This document shows, in pieces, positions 5,602-62,197 of a stretch of DNA of 64,000 bases. This DNA is from Acidimicrobiales bacterium (GTDB lineage Bacteria; Actinomycetota; Acidimicrobiia; Acidimicrobiales; Bin134): the NCBI GenBank assembly GCA_965115985.1, contig OZ220474.1:988909-1052908 (forward strand), in the 5' to 3' direction. Both the position numbers and the translations under genes were made by a program. Position 1 is the first letter of the stretch. The number at the start of each line of letters is the position of its first letter. The notes under the pieces are model-generated. The model did no database searches, was not told where the DNA came from, and saw only the letters and a program-made list of their open reading frames with translations.

Positions 5602-5711
5602 CCCATTCCGATCAGTCCGCGGCGGCCAGAGCGGCCACTCGGTGGTGGGTGCCGGGGCGGCGGCGGTGCTGGTGCCCATTCCGATCAGTCCGCGGCGGCC
5701 AGAGCGGCCAC
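5602..5711. repeat. Junction duplication (37 nt, period 73) carrying the 3' end of the HD-domain gene
   Basis: cccattccgatcagtccgcggcggccagagcggccac occurs at 5602-5638 and 5675-5711. Copy 2 contains the real stop (rc of 5685-5687). Confidence 0.85.
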
Positions 5712-6170
5712 CACCTCGGGGTCGAGCGAGCATCGAGCAGGAGAACGGTGATGCTCCGCGGCCCAGACCACGGTCGTCTCGGAACTGCCCGCCGCCCGCA
5801 ACATCCGCGCTCCTCGGCGGGGGTGATCTCGATACAGGGCCCACCGACCCGTGAGGCAACCGGGAAACAACGCGCCCACCAGGGTGGCCCCCACCCGAGC
5901 GGCAGTGCCCAACCCGGCCTCGGTCTTGCCCACGTCGTGGAGGGCGGCCGCCACCCGCTGGGCGTCATCGACCAGCGCGGGACAGGTGGCCGAACCCACC
6001 GCGTGGCTACGATCGGCCGCACTCATTCGCCGATAGAGCTCAACCTCCGCGTCGTTGAGCAATCCGAGGAGCCAGGCCTCCACCTCGGGATCGGGGCCGC
6101 GATTCATCACCGACTCGAAGAAGCGCCGCACCAGATGAACCCGGACCCTCATGGATCCAATTGTTCCCAT
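5685..6170 (-). CDS. HD-domain metal-dependent phosphohydrolase
   Basis: 161-aa ORF with H...HD spacing (DRSHAVGS ... AAALHDVGKTEAG). An alternative ATG lies at 6152. Confidence 0.65.
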   Translation of the reverse strand: MGTIGSMRVRVHLVRRFFESVMNRGPDPEVEAWLLGLLNDAEVELYRRMSAADRSHAVGSATCPALVDDAQRVAAALHDVGKTEAGLGTAARVGATLVGALFPGCLTGRWALYRDHPRRGARMLRAAGSSETTVVWAAEHHRSPARCSLDPEVVAALAAAD

Positions 6171-6241
6171 TCAACCTTGAAGAAGCGCCGCACCAGACGA
6201 ACCCGACTACCCATGGATCCACTTGCTCCTATTCACCGGTT
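6117..6241. repeat. Tandem 62-bp junction duplication (xerD stop / HD-gene start)
   Basis: gaagaagcgccgcaccaga(t/c)gaacccg... occurs at 6117-6178 and 6179-6241. The upstream copy holds the xerD stop (6229). The downstream copy holds the HD-gene start. Confidence 0.85.
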
Positions 6242-7320
6242 CCCGTTGACCGGCCGAGCGTCGCTCGGGGGTGAGCCGATTCATAGGTCTCCCACAATCG
6301 CTCGATGGCCACCATGGTGTAGACCTGGGTGGTGCTGATGGAGGCATGGCCCAGGAGCTCCTGCACCGCCCGGATGTCGGCCCCCCGATCCAGCATGTGA
6401 GTGGCGCACGAGTGGCGGAACACATGGGGGGAGACCCTTGCTCCCAGCCCCACCTGCCGGGCCCGTTTCTTCACCACTCCCCAGGCCCCCTGACGGGACA
6501 GGCGGCGGCCCCGCTGATTGAGCCAGACCGCCTCCCGGTCGTTCGCCGATGCCCAGCGGTCGGGCTCCATCTCCCCCCGACCACCAGGACCCAGCCAGGC
6601 GGTCATGGACTCGTGGGCCCATCGGCCCATCGGCAGGATGCGCTCCTTCCGGCCCTTGCCCAGCACGCGCACCGTCGAGCCCCCCATATCCAGATCGGCC
6701 AGCGACAAACCGACCAGCTCGCCGATGCGCATCCCCGTGCCGTAGAGAACTTCCAACATGGCTCGATCCCGTCGAGACACCGGATCCGAACCGGTAACGG
6801 CACCCATGATCTCATCCACCTCGGCCTCGCTCAGCGCCTTGGGCACTCCGGCCGGAACCCGGGGGAGCTCCATATGAGCACCGGGGTCATCGGCTCTAAC
6901 CCCCTCGACCATCAGGAACCGATAGAAGGTTCTGACAGTGGTCAACGCCCGCTTCACCGATGCCGGGGCCATCCCCCGACTCTGTTCGTGATGCACGAAC
7001 GCCAGGATGTCGTCCTCCACCGCCCCCTCGACACTGCGGCCTCGCTCCGCCAGGGTCGCGCAGTAGCGGTTCAGATCCCGGCGATAGGCCTCACAGGTTG
7101 AGGGCGACCGGCCTCGCTCCAGCACCAACCAATCCAAGAACTCCTCCACCCGATCGGGCCCGCTCGCCGACCTCGCCACGCCCGAATCAGGCCCGCTCGC
7201 CGACCTCGCCGCCACCGGCACGCCCGAACCCAGACCGCTCCCCGCCGCCGGCACGCCCGAATCGGGCCCGCTCGTCGCCGCCGCCACGCCCGAACCCGGA
7301 CCGCTCGCCGACCTCTGCAC
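6229..7320 (-). CDS. xerD: Tyrosine recombinase XerD (chromosome dimer resolution)
   Basis: EEFLDWLVLERGRSPSTCEAYRRDL core-binding domain. Catalytic region is HVFRHSCATHMLDRGADIRAVQELLGHASISTTQVYT. The first ~47 codons are junction-repeat copies, so the true start may be as far downstream as GTG 7179. Confidence 0.9.
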   Translation of the reverse strand: MQRSASGPGSGVAAATSGPDSGVPAAGSGLGSGVPVAARSASGPDSGVARSASGPDRVEEFLDWLVLERGRSPSTCEAYRRDLNRYCATLAERGRSVEGAVEDDILAFVHHEQSRGMAPASVKRALTTVRTFYRFLMVEGVRADDPGAHMELPRVPAGVPKALSEAEVDEIMGAVTGSDPVSRRDRAMLEVLYGTGMRIGELVGLSLADLDMGGSTVRVLGKGRKERILPMGRWAHESMTAWLGPGGRGEMEPDRWASANDREAVWLNQRGRRLSRQGAWGVVKKRARQVGLGARVSPHVFRHSCATHMLDRGADIRAVQELLGHASISTTQVYTMVAIERLWETYESAHPRATLGRSTGTGE

Positions 7321-7335
7321 GCCCGAATCACCCCA
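7140..7335. repeat. About four degenerate copies of the nudix-stop / xerD-start junction
   Basis: The unit acgcccgaa(t/c)c(a/g)g(g/a)cccgctcgccgacctcgcc is reiterated. It translates as (V)ARSASGPDSG-like units upstream of RVEEFLDW. Confidence 0.8.
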
Positions 7336-7897
7336 ATCGCTCTCGAGCCAGCATCAACCCGATGATGGACTTGGCATCCATCAACCGGCCGGCAGCCACC
7401 AACCCGGGCACATCGTCCAGATCCACGGACTCGATGGCCATGTGCTGCTCCTCGATGCTGTGGGGACTCCGACCGGCATCCACCAAGTCGGTGGCCAGGT
7501 AGCAGTGGGTTACCTCGTCGCAGAAACCCGGGGAATTGTAGAAGACGGCCAGCAGATCCAGATTGGCGGCTCGCTTGCCGATCTCCTCCTCCAACTCCCG
7601 CTGGGCCGCCACCGCAGGAGGCTCATCGACCGCGTCCAGCTTTCCCGCGGGGATTTCCAACATCTCCCGATTCGCCGCGGCTCGATACTGACGGATCATG
7701 ATGACACTCCGACCGTCGAGGGGAACCACCACTGCGGCACCGGGATGGCGAATTATCTCCCTCTCGTACATCGAACCGTCGGGGGCCCTGATCTCGGCCA
7801 CCGCCAGCGACACCGTCCGTCCCTGCCACCTCCGGTGCTCCCCCACCAGGGTGAACCCGGCCCCGCTGTTCCCGATCGACACCCCGCGGCCCCTCAA
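7328..7897 (-). CDS. NUDIX hydrolase (ADP-ribose pyrophosphatase-like)
   Basis: Nudix box [23 protein letters not shown]. It sits between pyrG and xerD as in mycobacteria. The start is uncertain (TTG 7897 or the GTG a few codons in). Confidence 0.85.
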
Positions 7898-9648
7898 CCA
7901 TGCATGGTGGGCAATACATCGGTCCGACCATCCAGGCCCCCGGAACCGACACCCCCACCAGCACCAGAACCGGCCCCGTCCTCGACACCCCCACCCCCAC
8001 TGGAACCATCCAGGCTCCCGGAATCATCCACCGGATCAGCGGCCAAGTCGCGGCCGCTTCGGGCCAACGCAGCCTCCACCAAGCCGCAGAACAGGGGTGC
8101 GGGCCGGTCGGGCCGGCTCTTGAACTCGGGATGGGCCTGGGTGCCCACCCACCAGGGGTGACCATCCAATTCGATGAACTCCACCAGAATCCCATCGGGC
8201 GACTCCCCCGAGATCACGAAATCGGTGCCCTCGAAACGGCTGCGCAGCTTGGGGTTGAACTCGTAGCGATGGCGATGACGCTCGGACACCACCTCGGTGC
8301 CGTAGATCTCGGCCACCCTGGTACCGGGCCGCAGCTTGGCCAAGCACGCCCCCAGTCGCATGGTGCCGCCCTTGTCGGTGATGCCGCGCTGCGATTCCAT
8401 CAAGTCGATGACCGGCCACGGAGTGCGAGGATCGAATTCGCTCGAGTGGGCGTTGTCCAGACCCAGAACGTTCCGGGCGTACTCGATGGTCATCACCTGA
8501 AGGCCCAGACAGAGGCCCAGACAGGGAATACCGTTCTCGCGGGCGTAGGAAGCGGCGTTGATCTTCCCCTCCACCCCCCGTTCGCCGAATCCGCCGGGGA
8601 TCACGATGCCGTCCAACCCGCTCAGCAGGCTGTCGATCATCAAACCCTCCACGCTCTCGGCCTGAATCCACTCGATCTCCACCGACGCGCTCTGATGGAT
8701 GCCGGCGTGGTTCAAAGCCTCCACCACCGACAGGTAGGCATCCTGAAGGGTGACGTACTTGCCGATGAGCCCGATGCGCACGGTGCGCCGGGCCCGGGCA
8801 ATCCGCCGGGTCAACCGTTGCCAGTCGGTCAGATCGGGTTCGGGAACGTCCAGACACAGGATGTCGCACACCTCGCGATCCAGCCCCTCCTCGTGAAGCA
8901 CCAGAGGGATCTCGTAAATGCTGTCGGCATCGGCCGCGTTGACCACCGATGCCGCATCCACGTCGCACAGGCCGGATATCTTGCGCTTCAGTTCGTCGGA
9001 AATGGGCTTCTCGCTACGACACACGATGGCATCGGGCTGAACCCCCCGGCTGCGAAGCTCGGTCACCGAGTGCTGGGTGGGTTTGGTCTTCTGCTCCCCC
9101 GCCGGGCCTATGAAGGGAACCAGCGTGACGTGGATGTAGCAGACGTTGCTCCGTCCCACATCCAGGCGCACCTGGCGGATGGCCTCCAGAAAGGGCAGGA
9201 TCTCAATGTCCCCGACGGTGCCACCGATCTCGGTGATGACGATGTCGGCGTCGTCGGACACCAGCCCCATGATGCGGTTCTTGATCTCATTGGTGACGTG
9301 GGGTATCACCTGTACGGTCTTGCCCAGGTACTCCCCGTATCGCTCGGCGGCGATGACCGAGGAGTAGATGGAGCCGGTGGTGGAATTGGAGAGCTTGGTG
9401 AGGCTCTCGTCCACGAACCGCTCGTAGTGGCCGAGATCCAGGTCCGTCTCCCCGCCGTCGTCGGTGACGAACACCTCCCCGTGCTCGAACGGGTTCATGG
9501 TTCCGGGATCCACGTTGATGTACGGATCCAGCTTCTGCATGGTAACCCTCAGACCACGCTGCTTGAGCAAACGCCCCAGTGACGCGGCCGTGAGCCCCTT
9601 GCCCAAAGAACTGGCCACACCGCCGGTGACGAAGATGTGTTTGGTCAC
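7894..9648 (-). CDS. pyrG: CTP synthase
   Basis: GTG at 9648 gives (M)[17 protein letters not shown]. The glutaminase domain has [12 protein letters not shown]. There is a G/S-rich C-terminal extension of about 45 aa. The track ORF (to 9915) over-extends the 5' end. Confidence 0.95.
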
Positions 9649-9731: not shown

Positions 9732-11309
9732 TTATTCCAGACGGGAGGCTCGGAGCAGTTCGACGGCGTGGGCGCGGGCGCTTTGGCTGTCGGGTGAACC
9801 GGAGAGCATTCGGGACAGTTCGATTATTCGATCCTCGCCCTCCAAGGGTTCCGCGGTCACCGAAACGGTCGATCCGTCGTCGTGCTTGATGATGCTCACC
9901 TGGCGATCGGCGCAAGCAGCCACCTGGGGCAGATGGGTGACCACCAACACCTGATGGTCGGTGCTCAATTGGGCCAACGCCTGTCCCACCGTCTGAGCCA
10001 CCTGGCCGCCGATGCCCGCGTCCACCTCGTCGAACACCAACACCGGGGGACCGGCGCTCATTGTCAGGCTCAGGGCCAGCATCACCCGGGCCAATTCGCC
10101 CCCGGAAGCCACCTGGCCGAGGGGCAAACCTTGTACCCCGCTGTTCGCGGCCAGCAGGATGCTCACGTCGTCGCCGGGGTCGTCGCCCACGTGGACCCGA
10201 ACCTCTGCTCTGGCCATGGCCAACTCTCGCAGTCGGGCCGTGACCTGGCGGCCCAGCGCGGTTGCCGCCCGTCGTCGAGCCGAGCCCACCGCTTCTCCGG
10301 CCTCGGCCACCGCCGCGACATGGCGGTGGTGGGCACCGTCCAGATCCTGGGCGAGGCGGTCGAAATCCTCCAGCTCACCCAGCCTCAGGGCCAGGTCTCG
10401 ATGAAACGCCATGACCTCGGTGAGGGTTTCCCCGTACTTGCGGCGCAGGTCCACCAGCAACTCCCGTCGCCGACGAACCTCGCCGAGACGTTGGGGGTTT
10501 TCCTCCATCGACTCGGCGGCCCGTCGCAATTCCATCGACAGATCGGATACCTCCGATGCCAGGCCGACGAGCCGCTCGTGGTGGGACTCCAGCGCCGGGC
10601 GGCTCTGCAACCGCGCGGCCGCCTCCGCCAACCCCGCCCCCACCGCTCCATCGGCACCCAGCGCCAGGGCGGCCTGCCGAGCGGCGTCGCGGCCAGCCGC
10701 GGCATCGGCCAGGGCGGCTTCCTCGGCCCTCAGATCGTCGTCCTCCGTCGGATTCTCCAAACCGGCGGCGTCGAGCTCTTCGAGCTGATACCGGCACAAC
10801 TCGATCTCCCGGGCCCGAGCTCGCCCGTCACCGCCCAGCTCGCGGCGCCGACGCTCAAGATCGGCCAACGCGGCCCGAGCTTCGACCAGTGCCGACAGAT
10901 CCACATCGCCGAACCGATCCAGGGCGGTCCGTTGGTTGGCCGCATGCCGCAACCACTGATGGGCGTGCTGGCCCTGAATGTCCACCAACTCCTGGCCCAG
11001 TTCCGAAAGCGCCGAGGTCGAGGCGATCCTGCCGTCCACATAGGCCCGGGCCCTTCCCCGGGCCGGAACCACCCGGCGCAACACGACCTCGGTGTCTTGA
11101 TGGTGGAACATGCCCTCCACCACGGCCTCGTCGGCTCCCGGGCGCACCAACGCCGGATTGGCCCGACCGCCCAGCAGCAGATCCAACGCGGTGATCACCA
11201 GGGTCTTGCCGGCACCGGTCTCGCCGGTCAGGGCGGTCATGCCCGGCTCCAGCACCAGGCCGAGCCGGTCGATCACCCCCAGGTTCTCAACGGCCAACTC
11301 GGTCAACAT
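9732..11309 (-). CDS. recN: DNA repair protein RecN
   Basis: [16 protein letters not shown]..., Walker A GETGAGKT, a long coiled-coil, the SMC signature [12 protein letters not shown] and Walker [13 protein letters not shown]. Confidence 0.9.
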
Positions 11310-11397
11310 CTACGGACTCTCATGGTTTACGGACCCTCAAGGCACACCCACGACTTTGGATTTACCGGCCCTCATGCTGCACCGGCAGGACTGGCCC

Positions 11398-12405
11398 TCA
11401 TCTACGGATTTTCCCGGATCTGCGATCCGGCAGACCGAACGACGACTTCAGCGCCTGGTGAAAGCCCCGCCTCCCCCCGGTCACCAACCGGGCGGGCTGC
11501 TCGGACACGGCCACCGTCAGTGTGTTACCCAACCCCAGTTGCCCCAACGAGCGTCCGTCCACCGCCACCGCCGCGGGGCGATTCTCCAGCACCTCGATGA
11601 CCAACTCGCTGGAGGGGAGCAGCACCAGGCTGCGATCGAACAAGGTGTGGGGGGCCACCGGCGTGAGAATCACCGCGCTCATGGTCGGAGCCAGAATGGG
11701 CCCACCGGCCGAGAGCGAGTAGGCGGTCGAACCGGTGGGGGTGGCCGCTATCAGGCCGTCGGCGGCGTAGCTCGTGAAGTACTCGCCGTCGATGTGAACG
11801 GCCAGGCTCACGGTGCGACCGCTGTCCAGCTTCTCCACGATCACCTCGTTCAACGCGCACCCCTCGGTACCGTCGTCCAGCTTGCAGCTCAGCCTGAGAC
11901 GCTCCTCGGTTTCGTAGTCACCGGCCAGGAACCGCTCCACCTCGGCCATGGCGTCCTCGGGCTGAACGTCGGTCAGATATCCCAACGAGCCGTAGTTGAC
12001 CCCCATCACCGGCACGCCGCGATCGGACACCGCGGTCACCGCCCTAAGCATCGAACCGTCTCCCCCGAGGCTCACCGCCAGATCGAGCCGGTCACCGATC
12101 CCATCCTCGGGAATAATCCCGTCCTCGGGAATAATGCCACCCTCGGGAATAATCCCATCCTCGGGAATAATCCCATCCTCGGGAATAATCCCATCCTCGG
12201 GAATAATCCCATCCTCGGCGCTGCTCCCGTCCTCGGGAACAGGGCCGAGCTCGGAAAACCCCGACTCGCTGCGACCCAGGGCCGTGGCCGCCTCGGGAGC
12301 GAGACGGATTCGGTGACCGCCGCCCTCCAAACGGTGAATCAACTCGGCCGCCAGTTCGAGAGCCTCGGGCCTTTCTGCATGCATGAACAGGGCGATTGCA
12401 GCCAC
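11398..12405 (-). CDS. nadK: NAD kinase
   Basis: GGDGSMLRA motif and the NAD-kinase C-terminal domain (TPTGSTAYSLSAGGPI). GTG start at 12405. It contains an (EDGIIP)n insertion. Confidence 0.9.
   Translation of the reverse strand: MAAIALFMHAERPEALELAAELIHRLEGGGHRIRLAPEAATALGRSESGFSELGPVPEDGSSAEDGIIPEDGIIPEDGIIPEDGIIPEGGIIPEDGIIPEDGIGDRLDLAVSLGGDGSMLRAVTAVSDRGVPVMGVNYGSLGYLTDVQPEDAMAEVERFLAGDYETEERLRLSCKLDDGTEGCALNEVIVEKLDSGRTVSLAVHIDGEYFTSYAADGLIAATPTGSTAYSLSAGGPILAPTMSAVILTPVAPHTLFDRSLVLLPSSELVIEVLENRPAAVAVDGRSLGQLGLGNTLTVAVSEQPARLVTGGRRGFHQALKSSFGLPDRRSGKIRR
12103..12246 (-). repeat. 18-bp in-frame microsatellite-like tandem repeat (about 8 units, central units identical) inside nadK
   Basis: The unit atcctcgggaataatccc is repeated and encodes (IPEDGI)n. 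Confidence 0.9.
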
Positions 12406-12414
12406 GGCCTCAGG

Positions 12415-13221
12415 TTATTGTCCCTCGACCCCGGTTTGGTTGTCCACCAGCGATACCACCTCGGCAGTATCCACCACCCCGACAGCTCCGCTCTTTTCCA
12501 ACAGTAGAAAGAACTCCACATTGCCCTGCCCGCCTCTCAGCGGCGACGGCATGGCCGCCCGAGGAGCAGCCTCCACCTCGGTCGCCGCCGCCATCACCCG
12601 GTCGAGGGCAGCCTGCCAGAGCCGTGGATCACCGATCACGCCCCGAGCCCGGGCGGCCTGTTGTCGGCCCACCTCGAACTGGGGTTTGACCAGAACCACC
12701 ATCGGCGTTCCCGGAGCGGCCAAACCAGCCAAGGACGCCAACACCGTGGTCAGCGATATGAAGGACAAATCGGCGGTGACCAGATCGAACGGTGCCCCTA
12801 TCCGATCGAGGTCCACACCTCGCACATCGGTGCGCTCGTAGACGAACACCCGAGGATCGGCCCTCAACCGCTCGTGCATCTGCGCCCTACCCACGTCAAC
12901 CGTGGCCACCCCCACCGCCCCGTTCTGCAACAAGCAGTCGGTGAACCCACCGGTGGACGCGCCCACATCGCAGCACCAGAGCCCGGCCACCTCCAAGCCG
13001 AACCCCGCCAGCGCACCGGCCAGCTTTTCCCCACCCCTGCTCACGAAGCGAGGCGGCGAACCCAGCAGGTTCACGGCATCACCGGGCAGCACCAGCCGGG
13101 CGGCCTTTTGAGCCACCGAACCGTTCACGGTGACCCGACCGGATTCCACCGCCTGCTTGGCCTTCTCCCGGCTCGACACCAGTCCTCGCCGGATCAGTTC
13201 GGCATCCAGCCTCCGACGCAT
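12415..13221 (-). CDS. tlyA: TlyA-family rRNA 2'-O-methyltransferase (S4 + FtsJ domains)
   Basis: MRRRLDAELIRRGLVSSREKAKQAVESGRVTVNG (S4 domain) and SAM motif CCDVGASTGGFTDCLL. I chose the ATG at 13221; the track start at 13260 lies in a junction repeat. Confidence 0.85.
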   Translation of the reverse strand: MRRRLDAELIRRGLVSSREKAKQAVESGRVTVNGSVAQKAARLVLPGDAVNLLGSPPRFVSRGGEKLAGALAGFGLEVAGLWCCDVGASTGGFTDCLLQNGAVGVATVDVGRAQMHERLRADPRVFVYERTDVRGVDLDRIGAPFDLVTADLSFISLTTVLASLAGLAAPGTPMVVLVKPQFEVGRQQAARARGVIGDPRLWQAALDRVMAAATEVEAAPRAAMPSPLRGGQGNVEFFLLLEKSGAVGVVDTAEVVSLVDNQTGVEGQ

Positions 13222-13309
13222 CCGGCTCACCTCACCCCAAGAGGCGGACCAGGTCGGCATCCGGCCTCTTACGGTCCGGCCTCCGGCGCATCCCGCTCAC
13301 CCCAAGGGC
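13200..13309. repeat. Junction duplication (HAD-gene stop / tlyA start), two diverged copies
   Basis: cggcatcc(a/g)gcctcc(g)(a/g)cgcatcc(g/c)gctcacc...ccccaag(a)ggc occurs at about 13200-13245 and 13255-13309. Confidence 0.7.
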
Positions 13310-14043
13310 TCGATGCCCATCCGGTCGACCAGGGTGGCCAGATCGGGAGCACAGTACTGCGGCTCGGGCGACACCGGCAGGTCGTCGGCACCGGTGACCC
13401 CGCTCAGCACCAGTGCGAACTCGTATCCCAACGCCCGGGCGAAGCAACCGTCGGAGTCGGGACGGTCCCCCACCACCACGCCGGTACCGCCGATCCGGTC
13501 GCGCACGCATCCGACCACCGGATCGTTGGGCTTTCCCGCCATGGTGGGCACGGTCTCCGCGGCCGTCGCCACTGCGGCCAGCACGGCACCGCCGCCCGGC
13601 TCCAGTCGGGACTCGGTGGGGTAGCTGGGATCATGGTTGGTGCCGATCAACCGGGCCCCGGCCCGCACCGCCCGCATGGCTCGGCCCAGAACGTCGTAGT
13701 CGAAACCGGGGTCGATCCCCACGATCACCGCATCGACCGCCTCCGACTCGCAGACCTCGGCCCCGGCCGCCTCAACCGCCTCGACGATGCCGGGACCGCC
13801 CACCACCAGCACCCGCTCGCCGGTATGGACGAGTCGTCCGGCCGCGGTGGCCGAGGTGACCACCAACCCGGTGGCATCGATCCCGCAGGCGGCCAGTCGG
13901 GCCTCCTGCTCGGCCACGGTCAGCGCCGACATGTTGGTGACGAACACCAGGGATGCGCCCGACCGTCGCAACCGTTCCACCGCCTCGGCGGCCCCGGGCA
14001 CCGGGGTCCGTCCCACCCACACCACTCCGTCCAGGTCGAGCAC
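13297..14043 (-). CDS. HAD-superfamily hydrolase, subfamily IIA (NagD-like phosphatase)
   Basis: Motif I LDLDGVVW, then VFVTNMS and GDRPDSD. I chose GTG 14043; the track ORF (to 14316) runs through duplicated junction sequence. Confidence 0.75.
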   Translation of the reverse strand: MLDLDGVVWVGRTPVPGAAEAVERLRRSGASLVFVTNMSALTVAEQEARLAACGIDATGLVVTSATAAGRLVHTGERVLVVGGPGIVEAVEAAGAEVCESEAVDAVIVGIDPGFDYDVLGRAMRAVRAGARLIGTNHDPSYPTESRLEPGGGAVLAAVATAAETVPTMAGKPNDPVVGCVRDRIGGTGVVVGDRPDSDGCFARALGYEFALVLSGVTGADDLPVSPEPQYCAPDLATLVDRMGIEPLG

Positions 14044-14046
14044 CCA

Positions 14047-14142
14047 CCCACTGGGAGGATGCCCGGACGAGAAGCGGGAGCCGCTCAGGAGACCCACTGG
14101 GAGGGAGGATGCCCGGACGAGAAGCGGGAGCCGCTCAGGAGA
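14047..14142. repeat. Tandem junction duplication (46 and 50 nt) of korB stop / HAD-gene start
   Basis: cccactggga(ggga)ggatgcccggacgagaagcgggagccgctcaggaga occurs at 14047-14092 and 14093-14142. The korB stop (14135) is in copy 2. Confidence 0.85.
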
Positions 14143-15163
14143 CCTCCCAGGTGGGCTGGGAGTGCAACAGCGCTTGGAGATCGCCGGGGCCGGACTGGTC
14201 CTGGGCCATGGCAAGCTGTTTGCTGGCCTCGCCGGCGTACTCGGGCCGCTCCACCGCCCGGTACACACCGATGGGGGTGGGCTCGAACGGGCCGGCCGAG
14301 AGCCGTGACAGCGCAAAGGCCAGGCTGGGGTCCTGGCGGGTCTCGTCGTGGACCAGCAGGGCCGACTCGCCGACGTCGGCCACGTCCACGACCTCGGCGC
14401 TTCCCTGGGAGTTCATGACCACGCCCTTGTCGTCGTCGTCCCCGAAACGTATGGGCCGACCGTGCTCGAGCGGGATGAGCATGGAGGCTCGCTTGTCCTT
14501 CTTGGTGATCGCCCCGAACGCCCCATCGTTGAACACGTTGCAGTTCTGGAACACCTCCACGAAGGCGGCACCGGGAAAATCGTGGGCCCGTCGGAACATG
14601 TCCATCATGTGTTGGCGGTCCATGTCATGGGTACGGGCCACGAAACTGGCCTCGGCCCCCAACGCCACCGAGATGGGATTGAACGGCTCGTCGATACTGC
14701 CCGCCGGGGTGGACTTGGTGACCTTGCCGATCTCGCTGGTGGGCGAGTACTGGCCCTTGGTCAGCCCGTAGATCTGATTGTTGAACAACAAGATGTTGAG
14801 ATTCACGTTGCGGCGCAGGGCATGCAGCAGGTGATTGCCGCCGATGGACAGCATGTCCCCGTCCCCGCCGACCACCCACACGTGCAGGTCGGGACGGGCC
14901 ATGGCCAGGCCGGTGGCCAGCGCGGGAGCCCGGCCGTGAATACCGTGCATCCCGTAGGTGTTCATGTAGTACGGGAACCGGGCGGCGCAGCCGATGCCCG
15001 ATACGAACACGGTGTCCTCCCGCCGCACGCCGAGTTCGGGCATGAGGAGTTGCACCGCGGTCAAGATCGAGTAGTCCCCGCATCCGGGGCACCAACGAAC
15101 CTCCTGGTCGCTGGTCCAATCGGCCTTGGTGGTGGTGGGCACGTCGGTCATCAATGGCTCCAT
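14135..15163 (-). CDS. korB: 2-oxoglutarate/2-oxoacid:ferredoxin oxidoreductase, beta (ThDP) subunit
   Basis: WCPGCGDYSILTAVQ, ThDP motif VVGGDGDMLSIGGNH, 342 aa. Confidence 0.9.
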   Translation of the reverse strand: MEPLMTDVPTTTKADWTSDQEVRWCPGCGDYSILTAVQLLMPELGVRREDTVFVSGIGCAARFPYYMNTYGMHGIHGRAPALATGLAMARPDLHVWVVGGDGDMLSIGGNHLLHALRRNVNLNILLFNNQIYGLTKGQYSPTSEIGKVTKSTPAGSIDEPFNPISVALGAEASFVARTHDMDRQHMMDMFRRAHDFPGAAFVEVFQNCNVFNDGAFGAITKKDKRASMLIPLEHGRPIRFGDDDDKGVVMNSQGSAEVVDVADVGESALLVHDETRQDPSLAFALSRLSAGPFEPTPIGVYRAVERPEYAGEASKQLAMAQDQSGPGDLQALLHSQPTWEVS

Positions 15164-15293
15164 TGATCGGTAGTGGTGGATTGATCGGTAATGGCCGGCA
15201 CGTCGGTCATCAATTGAACGGTGGTGGGCCCGTCAGCCATCAATGGCTCGATTGATCCGTGGGGAGGGCCCGTCAGCCATCGATGGCTCGGTT
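15131..15293. repeat. Three to four degenerate copies of the korA-stop / korB-start junction
   Basis: Variants of ggtggtgggc(a/c)cgtc(g/a)g(t/c)catcaatggctc(c/g)attgatc are reiterated between korB ATG (15163) and korA stop (15273). Confidence 0.75.
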
Positions 15294-17150: not shown

Positions 17151-17251
17151 GGAATCCTCCTTGATCCCATATGGCCCCTCGCCCTTGGCGATGCCGAGCC
17201 TTGAGAATACCCAGCGCGCCCCCCCAAGTGGCACATACTCACCACAAACCT

Positions 17252-17288
17252 GCCCCGCTCGGCAACAGCCCCACCCACGAGCCGGGGC
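17252..17288 (-). terminator. Candidate hairpin downstream of the Type ISP-like gene
   Basis: gccccgctcg (17252-17261) pairs imperfectly with cgagccggggc (17278-17288). A weak T-rich tail follows on the minus strand. Confidence 0.3.
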
Positions 17289-17299
17289 TCCGGCCTACG

Positions 17300-47540: not shown

Positions 47541-47906
47541 CAGTATGTAAATAATAGAGATATATATAGAGATAGAATAATTCTCTGATATTTGTCCTTG
47601 ATAATCTTGCTTTTTATTCCTAAGTCATATCTCACTCTATAACTTGTATAATCAAATATTATATTGGGAGTACTATAAAAGAAACACCTCACTACTCATT
47701 TACAAACCTACTTTATAGACAACGTTATCTCACAATAGGGCTAGCTAGCTATGACATAAAACTGTTCTGTGCTGAGATAAGAATTGTCTATAGTACTGTA
47801 TATACTAGTGATCTATATATACCAGTGATATAGAAGGTGAGGGGGGACCCTGTTTTGAGTCCGTGTTTTGTGGGTCTTAGTCCTGGATTGTGGGAGGATG
47901 ATTGGG

Positions 47907-48185
47907 ATGAAACGTAAGCGTCATACGCCTGAGCAGGCGATTCGCAAGGTTCGTGAGGGCGAGCGGTTGTTGAACGGGGGGGCTTCGATCGGTGAGGTTG
48001 TGCGGGCGTTGGAGATCACTGAGTCCACGTGGAATCGGTGGCGGAACCAGTACGGGGGCCTGAAGGCTTCCGACGCCAAGGAGCTCAAGGCGCTTCGGGT
48101 GGAGAACACCCGGTTGAAGAAGTTGCTTGCCGAGGCGGAGTTGGACAAGGCGATGCTGAGGGATCTCGCCGAATCAAAATGGTGA
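47907..48185 (+). CDS. IS3-family transposase OrfA (HTH)
   Basis: MKRKRHTPEQAIRKVREGERLLNGGASIGEVVRALEITESTWNRWRNQY plus a leucine-zipper-like tail. GGGAGG lies 9 nt upstream of ATG 47907. Confidence 0.85.
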   Translation: MKRKRHTPEQAIRKVREGERLLNGGASIGEVVRALEITESTWNRWRNQYGGLKASDAKELKALRVENTRLKKLLAEAELDKAMLRDLAESKW

Positions 48186-49036: not shown

Positions 49037-49456
49037 CCCATGGACTCACAAACGGGTCCCCCTCAAAGGAATAGTGGCTATGATATCTATCGAAGTGTAT
49101 AGATCATTGCAGTAAAATATTCTGACGCTCTTCGAGCATATACCCGGACTATAAAATGGTGGTGTGGTTGATATGTTCGTGGTCTAGCAGAAGGAGCTTC
49201 TGCTGGTAACTGATTATGGCGACACACTTGGCTGGCTCCGCATGCAATTGGCTAGTGGCGATCTCTCGCCCAGATAGCACGAGGTAATCGATAATATGTG
49301 TCTGATAGCTGGTGTCGATTTGTGCCAGGAGCAGTTGCAGATTCGATGCGAGGACCCATTTGATCTCGCTAGGGCTGTGCAGCGAGTTGCAGAAGTATGT
49401 GAAAAGCTTGATATTATCATGGTTACTGCTGAGGTTGCCAAGCCCGCCATGGACGC

Positions 49457-52597
<3,141 letters not shown>

Positions 52598-52610
52598 TGC
52601 CCGGCGAGCA

Positions 52611-53030
52611 CTAGGAGAAGCCGACGGCCACCACGGCTCCCACAACCGCCACCGCGAAGCCGGCGACCGCGAAAATGACCGTACGGAAGAGGTTGGCCAT
52701 CTGAAGCAATAGTTCCCCGCGCAGTTCCTTGAACCCGGCGTTCATCTCGATGCGAAGCCGTTCCTCGGAGTCCCGTATGTCCTCCTTGGTCGCCCGTATG
52801 TCCTCCCTGATGGCCCGTATGTCCTCCTTGGTCGCCCGTATATCGTCCTTGGTGGCCAGACGGTCCCAGGGCACGGGTGGAAGAGACTCGACCAATGTCC
52901 ACGCCTCCTCTTCTCCCAGGGTATCGACCAGGCGACTCAACAACGCAAGCCGCCTGCCTTCGCCAATGACATCACCCTCCGGCATCGCCGGCCTCCTCAG
53001 TGGTAGCTGTCGAAGGGAGGCAAAAATCAC
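52611..53030 (-). CDS. Small coiled-coil protein with C-terminal TM anchor (DUF1640-like), paralog B
   Basis: (V)IFASLRQLPL...LPPVPWDRLATKDDIRATKEDIRAIREDIRATKEDIRDSEERLRIEMNAGF...VIFAVAGFAVAVVGAVVAVGFS. The 5' UTR is nearly identical to paralog A. Confidence 0.6.
   Translation of the reverse strand: MIFASLRQLPLRRPAMPEGDVIGEGRRLALLSRLVDTLGEEEAWTLVESLPPVPWDRLATKDDIRATKEDIRAIREDIRATKEDIRDSEERLRIEMNAGFKELRGELLLQMANLFRTVIFAVAGFAVAVVGAVVAVGFS
52772..52855 (-). repeat. 21-bp in-frame tandem repeat x4 (heptad KEDIRAT units) in paralog B
   Basis: cccgtatgtcctcc(t/c)t(g)gtcg-type units lie at 52772, 52793, 52814 and 52835. Confidence 0.85.
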
Positions 53031-53098: not shown

Positions 53099-54481
53099 TC
53101 AGCCCTCGAATCGGGCGGTATCGGTGGCGAGGCGGGAGCGGAAGCGTTCTATTTGAACGGCCACCGGGGCGGGAGCGGCACCGCCGGGGGTGGTGCGGCG
53201 GGTGACGGCCACTCCGGGGGCCAGAAGCTCGGCGGCGGCGTCGCCCAGGTGGGGATCGGCTCGCACCAGGTCGACCAGGCCGGCTTCGCCATCGAGGGAG
53301 CGGCGGACCAGGTCGCCGACCAGGGCATGAGCATCACGGAACGCCATACCGCCGGCCACCAGGTGCTCGGCCAGGTCGGTGGCCGCGGCGGCGGGGGCAT
53401 CGGCGGAGGCGGCCATGGCTTCGGCGTCGAACCTGATGGTGGCCATCAGGCCGGTCATGGCTCGGACCCCGAGGCGCACCTGGTCGATGGTGTCGAACAG
53501 GGGTTCCTTGTCCTCCTGGAGGTCGCGGTTGTAGGCCAGGGGCAACCCCTTGAGCGTGGCCAGCAGGCCGGTGAGGTTGCCGATCAGCCGCCCCGCCTTG
53601 GCCCGGGCCAGCTCGGCAATATCGGGGTTCTTCTTCTGGGGCAGCATGGAGCTGCCGGTGGCGTAGGCATCGTCCAGCACTGCGAAACCGGACTCCTCCG
53701 AAGCCCAGAACACGATCTCCTCGCCGAGCCGGGATAGGTGGACGCCAACCATGGTGAGCGTGAACAGGCTCTCGGCCACGAAATCCCGGTCGGACACCGC
53801 GTCCATCGAATTGTCGAACCGGGCGGAGAAACCGAGGTCGGCGGCCACCATGTCGGGATCCAGCGGCAGCGACGACCCGGCCAGCGCTCCCGCTCCCAAA
53901 GGACTCACATCGAGGCGAGCCCGGGCATCGGCCAGCCGGTCCACGTCCCGGGCCAGCGCCCAACCGTGGGCCAACAGATGATGGGCCAGAAGCACCGGCT
54001 GGGCCCGCTGGAGGTGGGTGTACCCCGGTAGGTGGGCGTCGCCGACGTCGAGCGCCCGATCCAACAGCACCTGCTGGAGAGCGATCACGTCGGCGGCTAT
54101 GTTGGCCAGCTCCCGCTTGGCGTACAGGCGCAGATCGGTGGCCACCTGATCGTTGCGGCTGCGCCCGGTGTGGAGCTTGGCCCCGGCGGCTCCGGCCAGC
54201 TCGGTAACCCGACGCTCGACGGCGGTATGGACGTCCTCGTCGCCGGGCACGAAGGCGAACTTGCCGGACGTCAGCTCCTGTTCGGTGCGATCCAGCGCCG
54301 CCAGCACGTCGGCGACCTCGGTCTCGGTGAGCAGGCCGACACGACCCAGCATGCGAACGTGAGCCCTCGAGCCGGCTATGTCGTCGGGTACCAGCCGGAC
54401 GTCGAAGCCGATGCTGGCGGTGTAGGCCAACAGGGCCTCGGCCGGATCGCCGTCGAAGCGCCCGTGCCAAAGGGTGCTCAT
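53099..54481 (-). CDS. argH: Argininosuccinate lyase
   Basis: MSTLWHGRFDG..., lyase signature GSSMLPQKKNPD. ATG at 54481. Confidence 0.95.
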   Translation of the reverse strand: MSTLWHGRFDGDPAEALLAYTASIGFDVRLVPDDIAGSRAHVRMLGRVGLLTETEVADVLAALDRTEQELTSGKFAFVPGDEDVHTAVERRVTELAGAAGAKLHTGRSRNDQVATDLRLYAKRELANIAADVIALQQVLLDRALDVGDAHLPGYTHLQRAQPVLLAHHLLAHGWALARDVDRLADARARLDVSPLGAGALAGSSLPLDPDMVAADLGFSARFDNSMDAVSDRDFVAESLFTLTMVGVHLSRLGEEIVFWASEESGFAVLDDAYATGSSMLPQKKNPDIAELARAKAGRLIGNLTGLLATLKGLPLAYNRDLQEDKEPLFDTIDQVRLGVRAMTGLMATIRFDAEAMAASADAPAAAATDLAEHLVAGGMAFRDAHALVGDLVRRSLDGEAGLVDLVRADPHLGDAAAELLAPGVAVTRRTTPGGAAPAPVAVQIERFRSRLATDTARFEG

Positions 54482-54494
54482 GGCCGCCCCACCC

Positions 54495-55800
<1,306 letters not shown>

Positions 55801-55808
<8 letters not shown>

Positions 55809-55967
55809 GGGGTCTCCCTTCTGTTCACGATTTCGCCCACCTTCTTGCTCGGAGCATTATGGAAAGGGTTCACGGGGTGCCCTCCAACCGGGTAGATCCA
55901 ACTCGGCCCCGGCATCGATCACTGCCCCCAGGGTTCACGGGGTCTCCTCCAACCGGGTAGATCCAAC
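55801..55967. repeat. 65-bp-period reiteration (3 copies, decaying) of the argR-stop / argG-start junction
   Basis: gggttcacggggt(c/g)(t/c)cc... starts at 55801, 55866 and 55931. Copies 2 and 3 share ...ccaaccgggtagatccaac. Confidence 0.8.
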
Positions 55968-56438
55968 CGGGTCGGAAAGTCCGGCCAGGGAGCGCAGGAA
56001 ATCGGCCAGTGCCCGCCCGCCCAGGTCCTCGGTGGCCACCACCAACAAGGTGTCGTCCCCGGCCACGGTGCCCAATACCCCGTCCACCGTCGAGCGATCG
56101 ATGGCCGAGCCGACCACGTGGGCCGATCCCGGCGGAGTGTTCACCACGACCAGGTTCCCGGAGTTGCCCACCGCCACCACCCACTCCCCCAGCACTCGTC
56201 GGAGGTGGTCGTGGGGGGCCACCTGTTCGGATGGCAGCTCGGGGATGGCGTAGACCGACCCACCGCCGGTGGGCACCTTTACCGCGCCCAGGTCGTCCAG
56301 GTCGCGCGACGCCGTGGCCTGGGTGGTCACCACTCCCTCGGCGGTCAGCAGCTCCACCAGGTGGTCCTGGCTCTGCACCGACTCCCTCCTCAGAATCTGG
56401 GCAATCCGGTACTGACGCTGGTTCTTTCCCAGTCTCAT
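55935..56438 (-). CDS. argR: Arginine repressor
   Basis: MRLGKNQRQYRIAQILRRESVQSQDHLVELL (winged helix) and a C-terminal GTVAGDDTLLVV arginine-binding core. ATG at 56438. Confidence 0.9.
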   Translation of the reverse strand: MRLGKNQRQYRIAQILRRESVQSQDHLVELLTAEGVVTTQATASRDLDDLGAVKVPTGGGSVYAIPELPSEQVAPHDHLRRVLGEWVVAVGNSGNLVVVNTPPGSAHVVGSAIDRSTVDGVLGTVAGDDTLLVVATEDLGGRALADFLRSLAGLSDPVGSTRLEETP

Positions 56439-56555
56439 GGCTTCCCCAGAAGAAATGCGAGCAGCCCGCGGGTGGCGTGCATCCGGTTCTTTCCCAGTCT
56501 CATGGCTTCCCCAGAAGAAATGCGAGCAGCCCGCGGGTGGCGTGCATCCGGTTCT
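56420..56555. repeat. Perfect 65-bp tandem duplication of the argF-stop / argR-start junction (ATGA overlap)
   Basis: ggttctttcccagtctcatggcttccccagaagaaatgcgagcagcccgcgggtggcgtgcatcc occurs at 56420-56484 and 56485-56549, then ggttct again. Confidence 0.95.
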
Positions 56556-58604: not shown

Positions 58605-59644
58605 GGGGTGGCCTCCTCATCGGGATCGGTGGGGCCGGCAGTCAGTTCGGAAGCGGCCGGATCGGTGGGGCCGGGAATCGGATCAAGATCGGCCGGATCG
58701 GGGCCGGGAATCGGCTCAAGATCGGCCGGATCGGGGTCGGGAATCGGATCAAGATCGGCCGGATCGGGGTCGGGGTGGACCATCGTGCCCACTCCGGCAT
58801 CGGTGAACAGCTCCAGCAGCAGCACGTGAGGGGTGGTTCCGTTGACCATGTGAGCCGAGGTCACCCCGTGGCGCACGGCGTGAACGGCGGCCTCCGCCTT
58901 GGGGACCATGCCCCCGGCCAGCCCCCCGGATTCGATCATGGCTTCCAGGGTCGCGGCGGTGGTCTCGCTGATGAGAGTGGACGGATCGTCGGGGTCGGCG
59001 TACAGCCCCTCCACATCGGTGAGGAACAACGCCTTGACCGCGCCGAGCGCTCCGGCCAGGGTGCCGGCCACGGTGTCGGCATTGATGTTGAGGGCCTGGC
59101 CGGTGGGGTCGGCCCCGATGGTGGACACCACCGGGATCAGGTCCTCCCCCAGCAGGCGATCGATGATGGTGGTGTTCACCGCATCCACCGTGCCGACGAA
59201 GCCCAGTCCGGGATGGCGCACCCGAGCCTGGAGCAACCCGGCGTCCTCGCCGGACACCCCCACCGCCAGCGGCCCGTGAACGTTGATGGCCGAGACGATG
59301 TCTCGGTTCACTCGGCCCACCAGCACCATGCGGGCGATGTCCAGGGTGTCGGCGTCGGTAACCCGGAGCCCATCCACGAAGGTGGTCTCCAGGCCCAGAC
59401 GGTTCATCATCTCACCGATCTGGGGACCGCCGCCGTGAACCACCACCGGACGGATGCCCACCGAATGCATCAGCACCACATCGGCCGCGAAGCGGGCCAG
59501 ATGGGCGTCGTCCAGCGCGCTCCCCCCGTACTTCACCACCACGGTGGCCCCCGAGAACCGCTGGATGTAGGGCAGAGCCTGGGTGAGCACCGCCGCGGTG
59601 GCCTCCGGGGAGAGGTGGGTGGCCGCAATGGAGGAAGAAATCAT
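58601..59644 (-). CDS. argB: Acetylglutamate kinase with a repeat-built C-terminal extension
   Basis: VVKYGGSAL and VVHGGGPQI. The C-terminal ~55 aa are PDPADL(D/E)PIPxP repeats. Confidence 0.95.
   Translation of the reverse strand: MISSSIAATHLSPEATAAVLTQALPYIQRFSGATVVVKYGGSALDDAHLARFAADVVLMHSVGIRPVVVHGGGPQIGEMMNRLGLETTFVDGLRVTDADTLDIARMVLVGRVNRDIVSAINVHGPLAVGVSGEDAGLLQARVRHPGLGFVGTVDAVNTTIIDRLLGEDLIPVVSTIGADPTGQALNINADTVAGTLAGALGAVKALFLTDVEGLYADPDDPSTLISETTAATLEAMIESGGLAGGMVPKAEAAVHAVRHGVTSAHMVNGTTPHVLLLELFTDAGVGTMVHPDPDPADLDPIPDPDPADLEPIPGPDPADLDPIPGPTDPAASELTAGPTDPDEEATP
58655..58775 (-). repeat. 33-bp in-frame tandem repeat (about 3.5 copies) forming the ArgB C-terminal tail
   Basis: ggccggatcgg(t)gggg(c/t)cgggaatcgg(a/c)tcaagatc units lie at 58655, 58691, 58724 and 58757. 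Confidence 0.9.
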
Positions 59645-59730
59645 GACGTACCCATGTTCTCGTCAGCCTCCGGGGCGAGGTGGGTAGCCGCAATGGAGGA
59701 AGAAATCATGACGTACCCATGTTCTCGTCG
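59601..59730. repeat. 65-bp tandem duplication of the argJ-stop / argB-start junction (ATGA overlap)
   Basis: gcctccgggg(a/c)gaggtgggt(g/a)gccgcaatggaggaagaaatcatgacgtacccatgttctcgtc occurs at 59601-59665 and 59666-59730. Confidence 0.95.
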
Positions 59731-60863: not shown

Positions 60864-61885
60864 GGGTACACCCCCAAAGCAGTCAGACCGGTGGTCTCGT
60901 CCAGCCCGCAGACGAGGTTGGCGCACTGGACGGCCTGTCCGGCCGCTCCCTTCACCAGGTTGTCGATGGCGCACAACGCCACCACCGTATTGGTGCGGGT
61001 GTCGTGGCGAACGGTGAGGTGGGCCGCGTTGGAACCCAGCGTGGCCTTGGTGGACGGCGGGTGCTCGGAGACGACGATGAACGGCTCACCGGCGTAGAAC
61101 TCGGCCAACGCATCGAGCAGGGCATCGGTGGAGGTTTCGCCCACGGGCCGGGCGTAGCAGGTGGTCAGGATGCCCCGATTCATCGGAGCCAGGTGGGGGG
61201 TGAACAACACCGACGCCCCGGTGGCCTGTTCGATCTCGGGAGTGTGGCGGTGGTCGAGCAACCCGTAGGCGGTGAAGTTCTCGTCCACCGCGCAGAACGT
61301 CGTGTGGGCCTTGGGAGGGCGGCCGGCACCGGATACCCCACTGGCCGCGTCCACGATGACGCCCTCGGTCCGGATCAGACCCCGACGGACCAGCGGAGCC
61401 ACCGCCAGCGCCGCGGCGGTGGGATAGCAGCCGGGTACGGCCACCGAGGTGGCCCCGGCCAACTCGTCGCGGAACAGCTCGGGCAGGCCGTAGACGAACC
61501 GTCCGAGCAACTCGGGAGCTCGGTGCGGCTCCCCGTACCACTGCCGGTACCGACCGGCATCCTTGAGTCGGAAATCGGCCGCCAGATCGATCACCACCCG
61601 GTTCCCATCGAGCACCTCGGCGGCCATGGTCATGGATCGACCGTGGGGCAGGGCCAAGAACACCACCTCAACATCGTCCAGCAGGTCGGGGTGGTACTTG
61701 GCGAACTCCCGGTCGGAACCGGCCGCCGCCAGGTGGGGGTACAGGTCGGCCACCGGCTGCCCCGCCTGGGTCTCACCGGTGACGAAGCCGATGTCGAAAC
61801 CGCCGTGGTGGACCAGCAATCGCATCAACTCCGCGCCCACGTATCCCGATGCCCCCACTATCCCCGCGGAGATGCTGCCCGTCAT
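60860..61885 (-). CDS. argC: N-acetyl-gamma-glutamyl-phosphate reductase
   Basis: GIVGASGYVGAELMRLL (NAD fold) and the active-site Cys in VAVPGCYPTAAAL. Confidence 0.95.
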   Translation of the reverse strand: MTGSISAGIVGASGYVGAELMRLLVHHGGFDIGFVTGETQAGQPVADLYPHLAAAGSDREFAKYHPDLLDDVEVVFLALPHGRSMTMAAEVLDGNRVVIDLAADFRLKDAGRYRQWYGEPHRAPELLGRFVYGLPELFRDELAGATSVAVPGCYPTAAALAVAPLVRRGLIRTEGVIVDAASGVSGAGRPPKAHTTFCAVDENFTAYGLLDHRHTPEIEQATGASVLFTPHLAPMNRGILTTCYARPVGETSTDALLDALAEFYAGEPFIVVSEHPPSTKATLGSNAAHLTVRHDTRTNTVVALCAIDNLVKGAAGQAVQCANLVCGLDETTGLTALGVYP

Positions 61886-62032
61886 GGCGAGTATTATTCA
61901 ATAGCTTGCATACTAATGCAAGTCATATTCGGGGCTCGCCTCGACCTCGCAGAGCTAACTCTCGCAGGGTCAACTCCCGCAGGGCGGCGTGGTGAGCTGG
62001 TCGGCCCTGATCCCCCCGCACCCGGATCGGCG

Positions 62033-62197
62033 CTCGCAGAGCTCACCCCCGCAGGGTGGCGTTGTGGGTGTCGGTCACGGCATCGATCTCGCAGAGCTCA
62101 CCCCCGCAGGGTGGCGTTGTGGGTGTCGGTCACGGCATCGATCTCGCAGAGCTCACCCCCGCAGGGTGGCGTTGTGGGTGTCGGTCACGGCATCGAT
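62033..62197. repeat. Perfect 55-bp tandem triplication containing the 3' end and stop of pheT
   Basis: ctcgcagagctcacccccgcagggtggcgttgtgggtgtcggtcacggcatcgat occurs at 62033-62087, 62088-62142 and 62143-62197. The functional stop (62153) is in copy 3. Degenerate copies lie further downstream (about 61941-62032). Confidence 0.95.

Follow-up and report, generated by a model that had tools for sequence, protein, structure and literature searches.

Tandem duplications of gene ends at operon junctions in an Acidimicrobiales genome and its sister: derived state, clade restriction and reading phase

The 64,000-nt stretch of DNA analysed here (an Acidimicrobiales bacterium, contig OZ220474.1, positions 988,909 to 1,052,908; hereafter the window) contains many gene junctions at which a short segment with the stop codon of one gene, the start codon of the next, or both, is present in several local copies. 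Why do operon genes that overlap by a few nucleotides in related genomes lie apart here, with copies of their own ends between them? The initial annotation offered two answers: either a high rate of short tandem duplication is filtered by selection, which spares in-frame copies within genes and copies at junctions, or the duplications are adaptive and uncouple translationally coupled genes. The window is chromosomal DNA with a G+C content of ~66% and a typical actinobacterial gene order; among public sequences it is closest to sponge-associated Acidimicrobiia such as Candidatus Poriferisocius (88% identity for PyrG and 86% for ArgJ). The anatomy of the arrays, their derived state, their restriction to one clade and a bias in their reading phase were directly observed. 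A clade-specific excess of short tandem duplication, combined with selection that preserves termination-reinitiation coupling, is the probable explanation.

Duplicated gene ends and their single-copy ancestors

Repeats in the window were detected with Tandem Repeats Finder (TRF), a direct-repeat search, self-BLAST and an exhaustive offset scan. All 13 junction loci listed in the initial annotation were recovered in place by these scans, with 2–5 local copies of a gene end at each, and at least two further junctions carry such copies as well. The locus at 13200–13309, which contains indels, was confirmed by reading and translation. The offset scan counted 18 near-tandem clusters in the window, whereas five block-shuffles each gave zero, and the identity between copies ranges from 83% to 100% across the arrays. 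Both gene ends are not duplicated at every locus; five arrays contain only the stop (5602, 14047, 32062, 41215 and 62033), and one contains only the start region (40622). Every cluster with a period not divisible by 3 contains a gene end (11 of 11, against 1.43 expected), and none of 20,000 permutations within the window reached this number. The offset scan also agreed with the claim that repeats inside coding sequence stay in frame, because all eight such clusters have a period divisible by 3. No array lies wholly within the ~3.9 kb of non-coding DNA in the window.

Relatives whose arginine-pathway proteins are 76–94% identical to those of the window have single-copy junctions, mostly 4-nt ATGA or GTGA overlaps. 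At argF/argR and argJ/argB, and at pheT with its three copies, BLAST places every window copy at one position in each of two relatives (L081 and L082), whose aligned junctions are plain ATGA overlaps. Nearly all arg junctions are 4-nt overlaps in the long-read loci L161, L162 and L166–L168, as they are in L164 and L165 from argC to argR. The window copies are therefore derived insertions that separate formerly overlapping genes. This comparison of orthologous junctions, which the initial annotation had proposed, thus polarises the events and confirms its suggestion that overlapping junctions had been pulled apart.

The duplications are confined to a small clade. Two loci, L163 and L169, belong to one sister genome from an independent assembly (ERZ25068685 ctg6961_194x_c), and 13 further Poriferisocius-like loci, mostly from long-read contigs of megabase size, served for comparison. 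Under identical scan settings, the density was 3.0 clusters per 10 kb in the window (19 in 64 kb), 4.4 in L163 (9 in 20.5 kb) and 4.6 in L169 (10 in 21.6 kb), against 0.16 in the 13 other loci (4 in ~248 kb in total). When 131 Acidimicrobiia loci were surveyed more coarsely with BLAST, the density was 0.14 per 10 kb, and the window reached 2.0 by the same measure. The neighbour-joining tree built from six concatenated Arg proteins pairs the window with L163 as its sister (87.6% identity), and the compact genomes fall outside this pair. An exact-protein look-up of ArgR and ArgD from the window returned no match, that is, no second assembly of the same species.

The two sisters share the propensity to duplicate, and most of the events are independent. 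In the arg region, pheT/argC, argJ/argB, argF/argR and argR/argG are affected in the window, and pheS/pheT, argC/argJ, argD/argF, argR/argG and argG/argH in L163; argR/argG is the only junction of the arg operon hit in both. Around pyrG, both genomes have arrays at 5 of 11 junctions, and the periods differ between them. Two other relatives have one small event of their own each, L001 at ppnK/recN and L002 at korA/korB. Several arrays are 97–100% identical; some events are therefore very recent, and the process appears to be still active in both genomes.

A long-read locus from another Acidimicrobiales genome, L036 (OZ220727), was considered as a further case. It has a higher repeat density, but its arrays are not derived from gene ends and it was rejected; intergenic minisatellites with periods of 42–75 nt and up to 13.6 copies surround its pyrG (9770–19190).

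Reading phase and relay mini-ORFs

The copies that include a start codon obey a phase rule. At a junction with a 4-nt or 1-nt overlap, an open reading frame (ORF) opened by the duplicated start meets the stop of the next copy only with a period of 2 mod 3; at an 8-nt overlap, the required phase is 1 mod 3. Each array was counted once. The periods in the window are 65 nt at argJ/argB, argF/argR, argR/argG (twice) and HAD/tlyA, and 62 nt at xerD/HD; those in the sister genome are 68 at argC/argJ, 53 at argD/argF, 38 at argR/argG, and 68 at both argG/argH and HAD/tlyA. The sister korB/HAD array, with a period of 38, is in relay phase provided that its annotated start is real. The korA/korB periods of the window (40) and of L002 (61) are both 1 mod 3. 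In sum, the relay phase accounts for 13 start-including arrays (11 at 2 mod 3 and the two at korA/korB), and three more keep the reading frame (nudix/xerD in both genomes and the start region at 40622); the wrong phase does not occur. Under an expectation of 1/3, the binomial chance of at least 11 out of 14 is ~6e-4. The 12 stop-only arrays are split 6, 2 and 4 between 1, 2 and 0 mod 3; they take any phase, and the mutational process itself is therefore without phase bias.

The arrays in relay phase form chains that lead from the upstream gene through one or two mini-ORFs of 13–30 codons to the downstream gene. Successive reading frames in a chain are joined by ATGA, GTGA, TGATG or an 8-nt overlap, or stand a few nucleotides apart. 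Translating the sequence confirmed eight mini-ORFs in the window, and others are present in L163, L169 and L002. In L163, four 33-nt copies are read through by a 45-codon ORF that extends from the pheS stop (TAGTG) to a GTGA at the homology-supported pheT start. Miscalled starts (korB at 15163, true start 15151; L163 pheT at 1503, true start 1491; L163 argH at 11933, true start ~11882) hid chains from a strict automatic search at four junctions, and these were corrected by homology and a relaxed search.

Origin and retention of the arrays

We propose that the ancestor of the window and sister genomes gained a much raised rate, or a raised retention, of tandem duplications of ~30–75 nt. Where the operon genes of a compact genome share 4-nt overlaps, nearly all such insertions would be purged by selection, and three classes would survive: copies of only a stop or only a start, which leave one intact gene end and are free in length; copies that add a multiple of 3 nt and extend a protein end; and copies of the stop/start overlap in which the duplicated start is in frame with the stop of the next copy. 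In the last class, ribosomes that have completed the upstream gene would start again on a mini-ORF of ~13–30 codons and then stop on a codon that overlaps the next start, and the coupling would be relayed over a spacer of 40–130 nt to the true downstream gene. A copy in the wrong phase would carry ribosomes across the true start out of frame. Termination-reinitiation is reported to fail at a stop-to-start spacing of ~20 nt (PMC10666635). With such a collapse, a spacer of 60–130 nt would uncouple the genes unless a stepping-stone ORF restored the overlaps. The overlaps are retained at each step of the chains, which contradicts the proposal that the duplications serve to uncouple the genes. The other early proposal, a high duplication rate with a selective filter, fits the data in general, but its simple form, in which a junction tolerates any period, fails on the restricted phase. 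Selection on phase may act through coupling or through avoidance of out-of-frame read-through over the true start, and the mutations themselves may arise by slippage or microhomology.

Several points weigh against coupling-preserving selection on slippage products. The phase sample comprises 106 kb from two genomes, and the use of the mini-ORF relay by ribosomes is predicted from sequence. About 60% of 22-codon mini-ORFs with shuffled interiors keep the chain, so the missing in-frame stops are weak evidence on their own; because the interior shuffle preserves the phase, it is an uninformative null, and the informative test is the phase count. Retention could stem from relaxed selection in a symbiont and not from a raised mutation rate. 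Both sisters have duplications, with unequal periods, at several of the same junctions, so hotspots or concerted evolution could be at work in place of random hits. Moreover, at least five arrays have a copy-filler-copy structure, which simple slippage does not predict, with copies that are 95–100% identical and fillers unrelated to their flanks. Fillers were found at 5602, 32062, 41215 and 55865 in the window (copy/filler lengths of 37/36, 46/29, 37/18 and 38/27 nt), at argC/argJ in L163 (17/51) and at ppnK/recN in L001 (15/39). Clear microhomology was seen at one event only, argF/argR, where the breakpoints share AGAACC; those at korB/HAD share GGT/GGGT and those at argJ/argB 0–2 nt, and the picture at pheT is ambiguous. 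The possibility that the fillers are diverged copies of the flanking parental sequence was rejected (p = 0.29–0.94), and a comparison of the fillers with each other revealed no shared motif. Because the fillers resemble neither their flanks nor each other, break repair with filler or template switching is suggested for part of the events. Three copies of 37–38 nt had also prompted us to consider ectopic CRISPR-type integration; it was discarded because the copies vary from 15 to 46 nt and the fillers from 18 to 51 nt, and because filler is missing from most arrays; six arrays (56420, 59601, 62033, 6114, 14047 and 40622) are plain head-to-tail copies without any insert.

Neutral slippage with a plain frameshift filter, in which translational coupling plays no part, would account for the coding clusters that are all divisible by 3, for the gene ends contained in all the remaining clusters, for the stop-only arrays in any phase and for the 6-nt direct repeat that bounds one event. 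It seems unlikely, since it predicts an even spread of phases at stop/start junctions, where 13 relay, 3 in-frame and no wrong-phase arrays were observed, and since the phase of 6 of the 12 stop-only arrays is never seen in start-including arrays where the overlap is 4 nt or 1 nt. In addition, argR/argG keeps its 65-nt period despite the unrelated interiors of its mini-ORFs. The copy-filler-copy arrays could instead point to a process targeted at gene ends, for example staggered-break fill-in with end-joining or template switching provoked at stop/start sites, that duplicates its target with or without filler. The absence of arrays from purely non-coding DNA, the repeated rounds at pheT, argR/argG, korA/korB and 40622, and the reported need for end-joining in de novo tandem duplication in yeast (PMC4608483) also agree with such a process. 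However, no enzyme or recognition motif was identified, the variable lengths of copies and fillers give no indication of a ruler, and the six plain arrays have no filler to explain. The absence of purely intergenic arrays is partly expected, as a copy of 50–75 nt would not have fitted into the original spacers, and the repeated rounds are explained by existing repeats that promote slippage. We consider a targeted process very unlikely. Its extension to a process that prefers stop/start overlaps (for instance template switching tied to translation termination), at times captures filler, and serves in compact operons as a general source of spacers, relay mini-ORFs and elements of the mycobacterial interspersed repetitive unit (MIRU) type is quite unlikely.

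A mobile repeat that inserts at intercistronic sites, similar to MIRUs or to miniature inverted-repeat transposable elements (MITEs), is suggested by the location between operon genes and by the mini-ORFs that overlap the flanking stop and start codons, both of which resemble MIRUs as outlined in PMC12548453 (citing Supply 1997). Each unit is nevertheless a local gene end that maps to a single-copy orthologous junction, the units of different loci are no more similar than expected by chance, and the fillers share nothing; such an element is scarcely credible. An assembly or polishing artefact might be suspected because several arrays are 100% identical and one 55-nt period equals a common assembler k-mer size. 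This is highly improbable, for exact copies coexist with copies diverged to 83–97%, and the arrays obey reading-frame rules, an argument that had already been put forward in the initial annotation. The same trait is present in the independent assembly of the sister and absent from sibling long-read assemblies with similarly named contigs, a short-read genome bin (L001) has a junction array of its own, and the 55-nt array consists of three copies and an older decayed one.

Among known systems, MIRUs are the nearest analogue, with the same architecture and presumed mode of action. They are, in the account of PMC12548453 (citing Supply et al. 1997), tandem intercistronic units of 40–100 bp that are oriented with the operon genes and contain a small ORF that is coupled, at a spacing of −4, to the start of the next gene, with little disturbance of the expression of flanking genes. 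The units of the window likewise lie between co-oriented operon genes (korA/korB, HAD/tlyA, xerD/HD, argJ/argB, argF/argR and argR/argG), and their small ORF overlaps the adjacent stop codon at one end and the adjacent start codon at the other. However, MIRUs are dispersed, share a consensus and are thought to be mobile, whereas each unit here is a copy of its own junction; an all-against-all BLAST of 14 units, also searched against the window, gave only chance-level matches and hence no family consensus. The host belongs to Acidimicrobiia and not to Mycobacterium, and the single-copy precursor is visible in relatives. In reviewed yeast work, a deficiency of the flap endonuclease Rad27/FEN1 is reported to act as a mutator that causes tandem duplications bounded by microhomology (PMC4608483). 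The lengths of tens of bases, the pre-existing direct repeat that bounds at least one event and the lineage-wide excess are similar in our case, but many of the window arrays carry unrelated filler, and only the survivors of selection are visible.

The ancestral ATGA, GTGA and TGATG overlaps are those of termination-reinitiation coupling (PMC6728339, PMC10666635) and are reproduced at each relay step; the known cases run directly from gene to gene, whereas one or two non-conserved mini-ORFs are interposed here. In the bicistronic design with a leader ORF and in natural short ORFs (PMC12548453), the stop of a short ORF similarly overlaps the target start and delivers ribosomes to it, but these are engineered or individual natural cases, while the arrangement described here recurs by junction duplication. 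Bacterial minisatellites, or variable number tandem repeats (VNTRs), share the periods of 18–75 nt, the multiple rounds of expansion and the presence of some exact copies; they differ in that most window arrays have 2–4 copies, derive from gene ends and follow a phase rule. The literature searched, whose coverage was incomplete, yielded neither an account of junction duplications copied from their own locus nor one of the phase rule; an earlier report may exist.

The junctions look like a natural mutagenesis experiment, in which dozens of independent insertions hit 4-nt overlaps and the survivors reveal the tolerated lengths. The phase rule is comparative evidence for selection on coupling, or against out-of-frame translation over a start codon, and suggests that coupling may be relayed through arbitrary mini-ORFs. 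The arrays also offer a concrete route by which overlapping genes separate and by which spacers and new short ORFs arise, and a possible origin for MIRU-like elements. The replication and repair genes of the clade deserve attention for the cause of the excess.

Arrays and neighbouring genes

The affected genes form two blocks, and the rRNA operon, tyrS, a gene for a giant surface protein and a type I restriction-modification (RM) island lie between them (Table 1).

Table 1. Gene blocks, duplication arrays and relay mini-ORFs in the window
Feature	Position (nt)	Strand	Details
Amidohydrolase, HD-domain gene, xerD, nudix, pyrG, recN, ppnK, tlyA, HAD hydrolase, korB, korA	4.3–17.2 kb	-	
rRNA operon	33742–38804		
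argH, argG, argR, argF, argD, argB, argJ, argC, pheT	53–64 kb	-	
HD-domain gene 3' end	5602–5711	-	Copy-filler-copy, stop-only; stop 5685–5687; 37-nt copies 5675–5711 and 5602–5638, 100% identical; unrelated 36-nt filler 5639–5674; period 73
xerD/HD junction	6114–6235	-	62-nt unit, 2 copies, 83–86% identical
xerD/HD relay mini-ORF	6149–6214	-	MGSRVRLVRRFFKVEWEQLDP and stop; terminates on ATGA overlapping the HD start at 6152
nudix stop/xerD start region	7149–7335	-	~5 repeats, in-frame periods 33/42/66
ppnK/recN spacer	11309–11400	-	Decayed copies of the ancestral CCGTAG-ATG junction (CCGTAGATG); tiny ORFs with ATGA overlaps; absent from the initial list
HAD/tlyA junction	13215–13305	-	Period 65
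HAD/tlyA relay mini-ORF	13232–13300	-	VSGMRRRPDRKRPDADLVRLLG and stop; opens on GTGA of the HAD stop, ends 1 nt before tlyA GTG 13230
korB stop and ~40-nt spacer (korB/HAD)	14047–14144	-	Period 50/46, 2 copies, stop-only
korA/korB junction	15131–15293	-	4 copies of an 8-nt overlap of the ATGGCTGA type
korA/korB relay mini-ORFs	15233–15280, 15151–15240	-	Second terminates with TGATG on korB ATG at 15151
Gene 32149–33630, 3' end	32062–32182	-	Copy-filler-copy, stop-only; 46-nt copies 98% identical, 29-nt filler, period 75; GC hairpin downstream of copy 2
RBS, ATG and first ~10 codons of gene 40635/40731–41237	40622–40757	+	48-nt period, 2.9 copies, in frame
Gene 40635–41237, 3' end (convergent junction)	41215–41378	+	Stop-only; stop 41235–41237; two 37-nt copies (41215–41306) 100% identical, 55 nt apart; 18-nt filler forms a hairpin partner; partial third copy 41342–41378
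argR/argG junction	55805–55967	-	Three GTGA cores 65 nt apart; argG GTG 55808
argR/argG relay mini-ORFs	55870–55938, 55805–55873	-	22 codons each; interiors unrelated, 65-nt period kept
argF/argR junction	56420–56555	-	65 nt, 2.1 copies, 100% identical; argR ATG 56438
argF/argR relay mini-ORF	56435–56503	-	MRLGKNRMHATRGLLAFLLGKP and stop
ArgB C-terminal extension	58654–58774	-	In-frame 33 nt, 3.4 copies; just upstream of the retained argB–argD ATGA overlap; absent from the initial list
argJ/argB junction	59601–59729	-	65 nt, 2 copies, 97% identical; argB ATG 59644
argJ/argB relay mini-ORF	59641–59709	-	MISSSIAATHLAPEADENMGTS and stop
pheT 3' end	61938–62197	-	Stop-only; stop 62153–62155; three exact 55-nt copies 62033–62197; older decayed copy 61938–61970, absent from the initial list

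In the pyrG/kor block, the sister genome has its own copy-filler-copy array, with a period of 70, at the HD/amidohydrolase junction. The remnant of the HD gene end in L002 directly adjoins the amidohydrolase leader, an arrangement as in copy B of the window array at 5602. Both L001 (8330–8440) and L002 (8610–8810) lack the HD-domain gene that otherwise lies between xerD and the amidohydrolase gene, and the L002 spacer retains the last codons of this gene (AAALAVAD and stop); because this remnant persists, the gene was deleted in the L002 lineage. The repeats at nudix/xerD give XerD an N-terminal extension or alternative GTG starts. The alignment of XerD to its relatives begins only downstream of the repeats, and the same junction of the sister genome has an in-frame 63-nt copy.

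Relatives show the ppnK/recN junction in other states, an 18-nt single-copy spacer in L002 and a separate array of 54 nt in 2.4 copies in L001. The HAD/tlyA junction is single-copy in L001 and has two 68-nt copies of the same architecture in the sister genome, and korB/HAD is single-copy in both L001 and L002. At korA/korB, L002 has 2 copies (period 61, with a 22-codon mini-ORF) and the sister locus L169 a single one; in L001 the spacer has been absorbed as an extension of KorA that again ends on ATGA.

Three further observations concern this block. The 3' end of recN is duplicated at recN/pyrG in two different genomes, at L170 (11575–11679, period 65) and L169 (11567–11665, period 72), and the recN/pyrG spacer of the window contains no repeat. 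RecN of the sister genome (L169 10001–11593) is 73% identical to that of the window, compared with 75–78% for more distant relatives, and may be evolving faster in the sister lineage. The C-terminus of PyrG in the window (7894–8030) has a glycine/serine-rich extension of ~45 residues that is absent in relatives (the alignment stops at 539/584) and may be another absorbed in-frame expansion.

In the arg block, argR/argG is single-copy in L081 and L082 and has a −4 overlap in L161. The 65-nt unit of argF/argR lies exactly between 6-nt direct repeats (AGAACC) that are already present in the single-copy L081 and L082. ArgB has 347 aa in the window, compared with 293–310 aa in relatives, and the sister genome has an in-frame 66-nt array at the same place in its C-terminus. 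The source annotation gives ArgR 147 aa, whereas 167 aa are indicated by its homologues and by the ATG at 56438 (55935–56438); the duplications explain annotation errors of this kind in such genomes. ArgG (54481–54620) has ~30 more C-terminal residues than its relatives, and its stop lies 13 nt before the argH ATG at 54481. An upstream CGATGAGC motif resembles the CCATGAGC junction, and the extra C-terminus may be an old junction copy that was absorbed after a change of frame. A perfect palindrome (TTGCATTAGTATGCAA, 61906–61921) in an AT-rich patch just upstream of argC, matched by TGAATACTTATTCA at the corresponding position in L082, is probably an arginine-repressor operator.

Between the two blocks, the start-region array at 40622 indicates two rounds of duplication, because its copies 1 and 3 match exactly over 37 nt while copy 2 has diverged. 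Five in-frame repeats of a 69-nt unit (99% identical, 23 aa per unit) are found at 33075–33619, immediately downstream of the 5S rRNA gene. These repeats sit inside the ORF 32149–33630, which has no Pfam match, and adjoin older 102-nt copies. A run of 29 G (22287–22315; C on the minus strand) separates the stop of the surface-protein gene (22394–30487; 2697 aa, Calx-beta/PKD) from the start of a Mrr/ResIII-like gene (20890–22245); it could be a phase-variation tract or a long-read homopolymer error. A defence island of ~10 kb (43305–53030) lies between argH and a methylpurine glycosylase gene, which are adjacent in L161–L163, L166 and L168. It contains the type I RM genes hsdM (43305–44891), hsdS fused to or overlapping a nucleotidyltransferase gene (45184–46869) and hsdR (49457–52597), together with a HEPN-like gene (44916–45338), a TIR-domain gene (46869–47540) and an IS3-type transposase gene (47868–49036). 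The G+C content dips to 51% at 44–48 kb.

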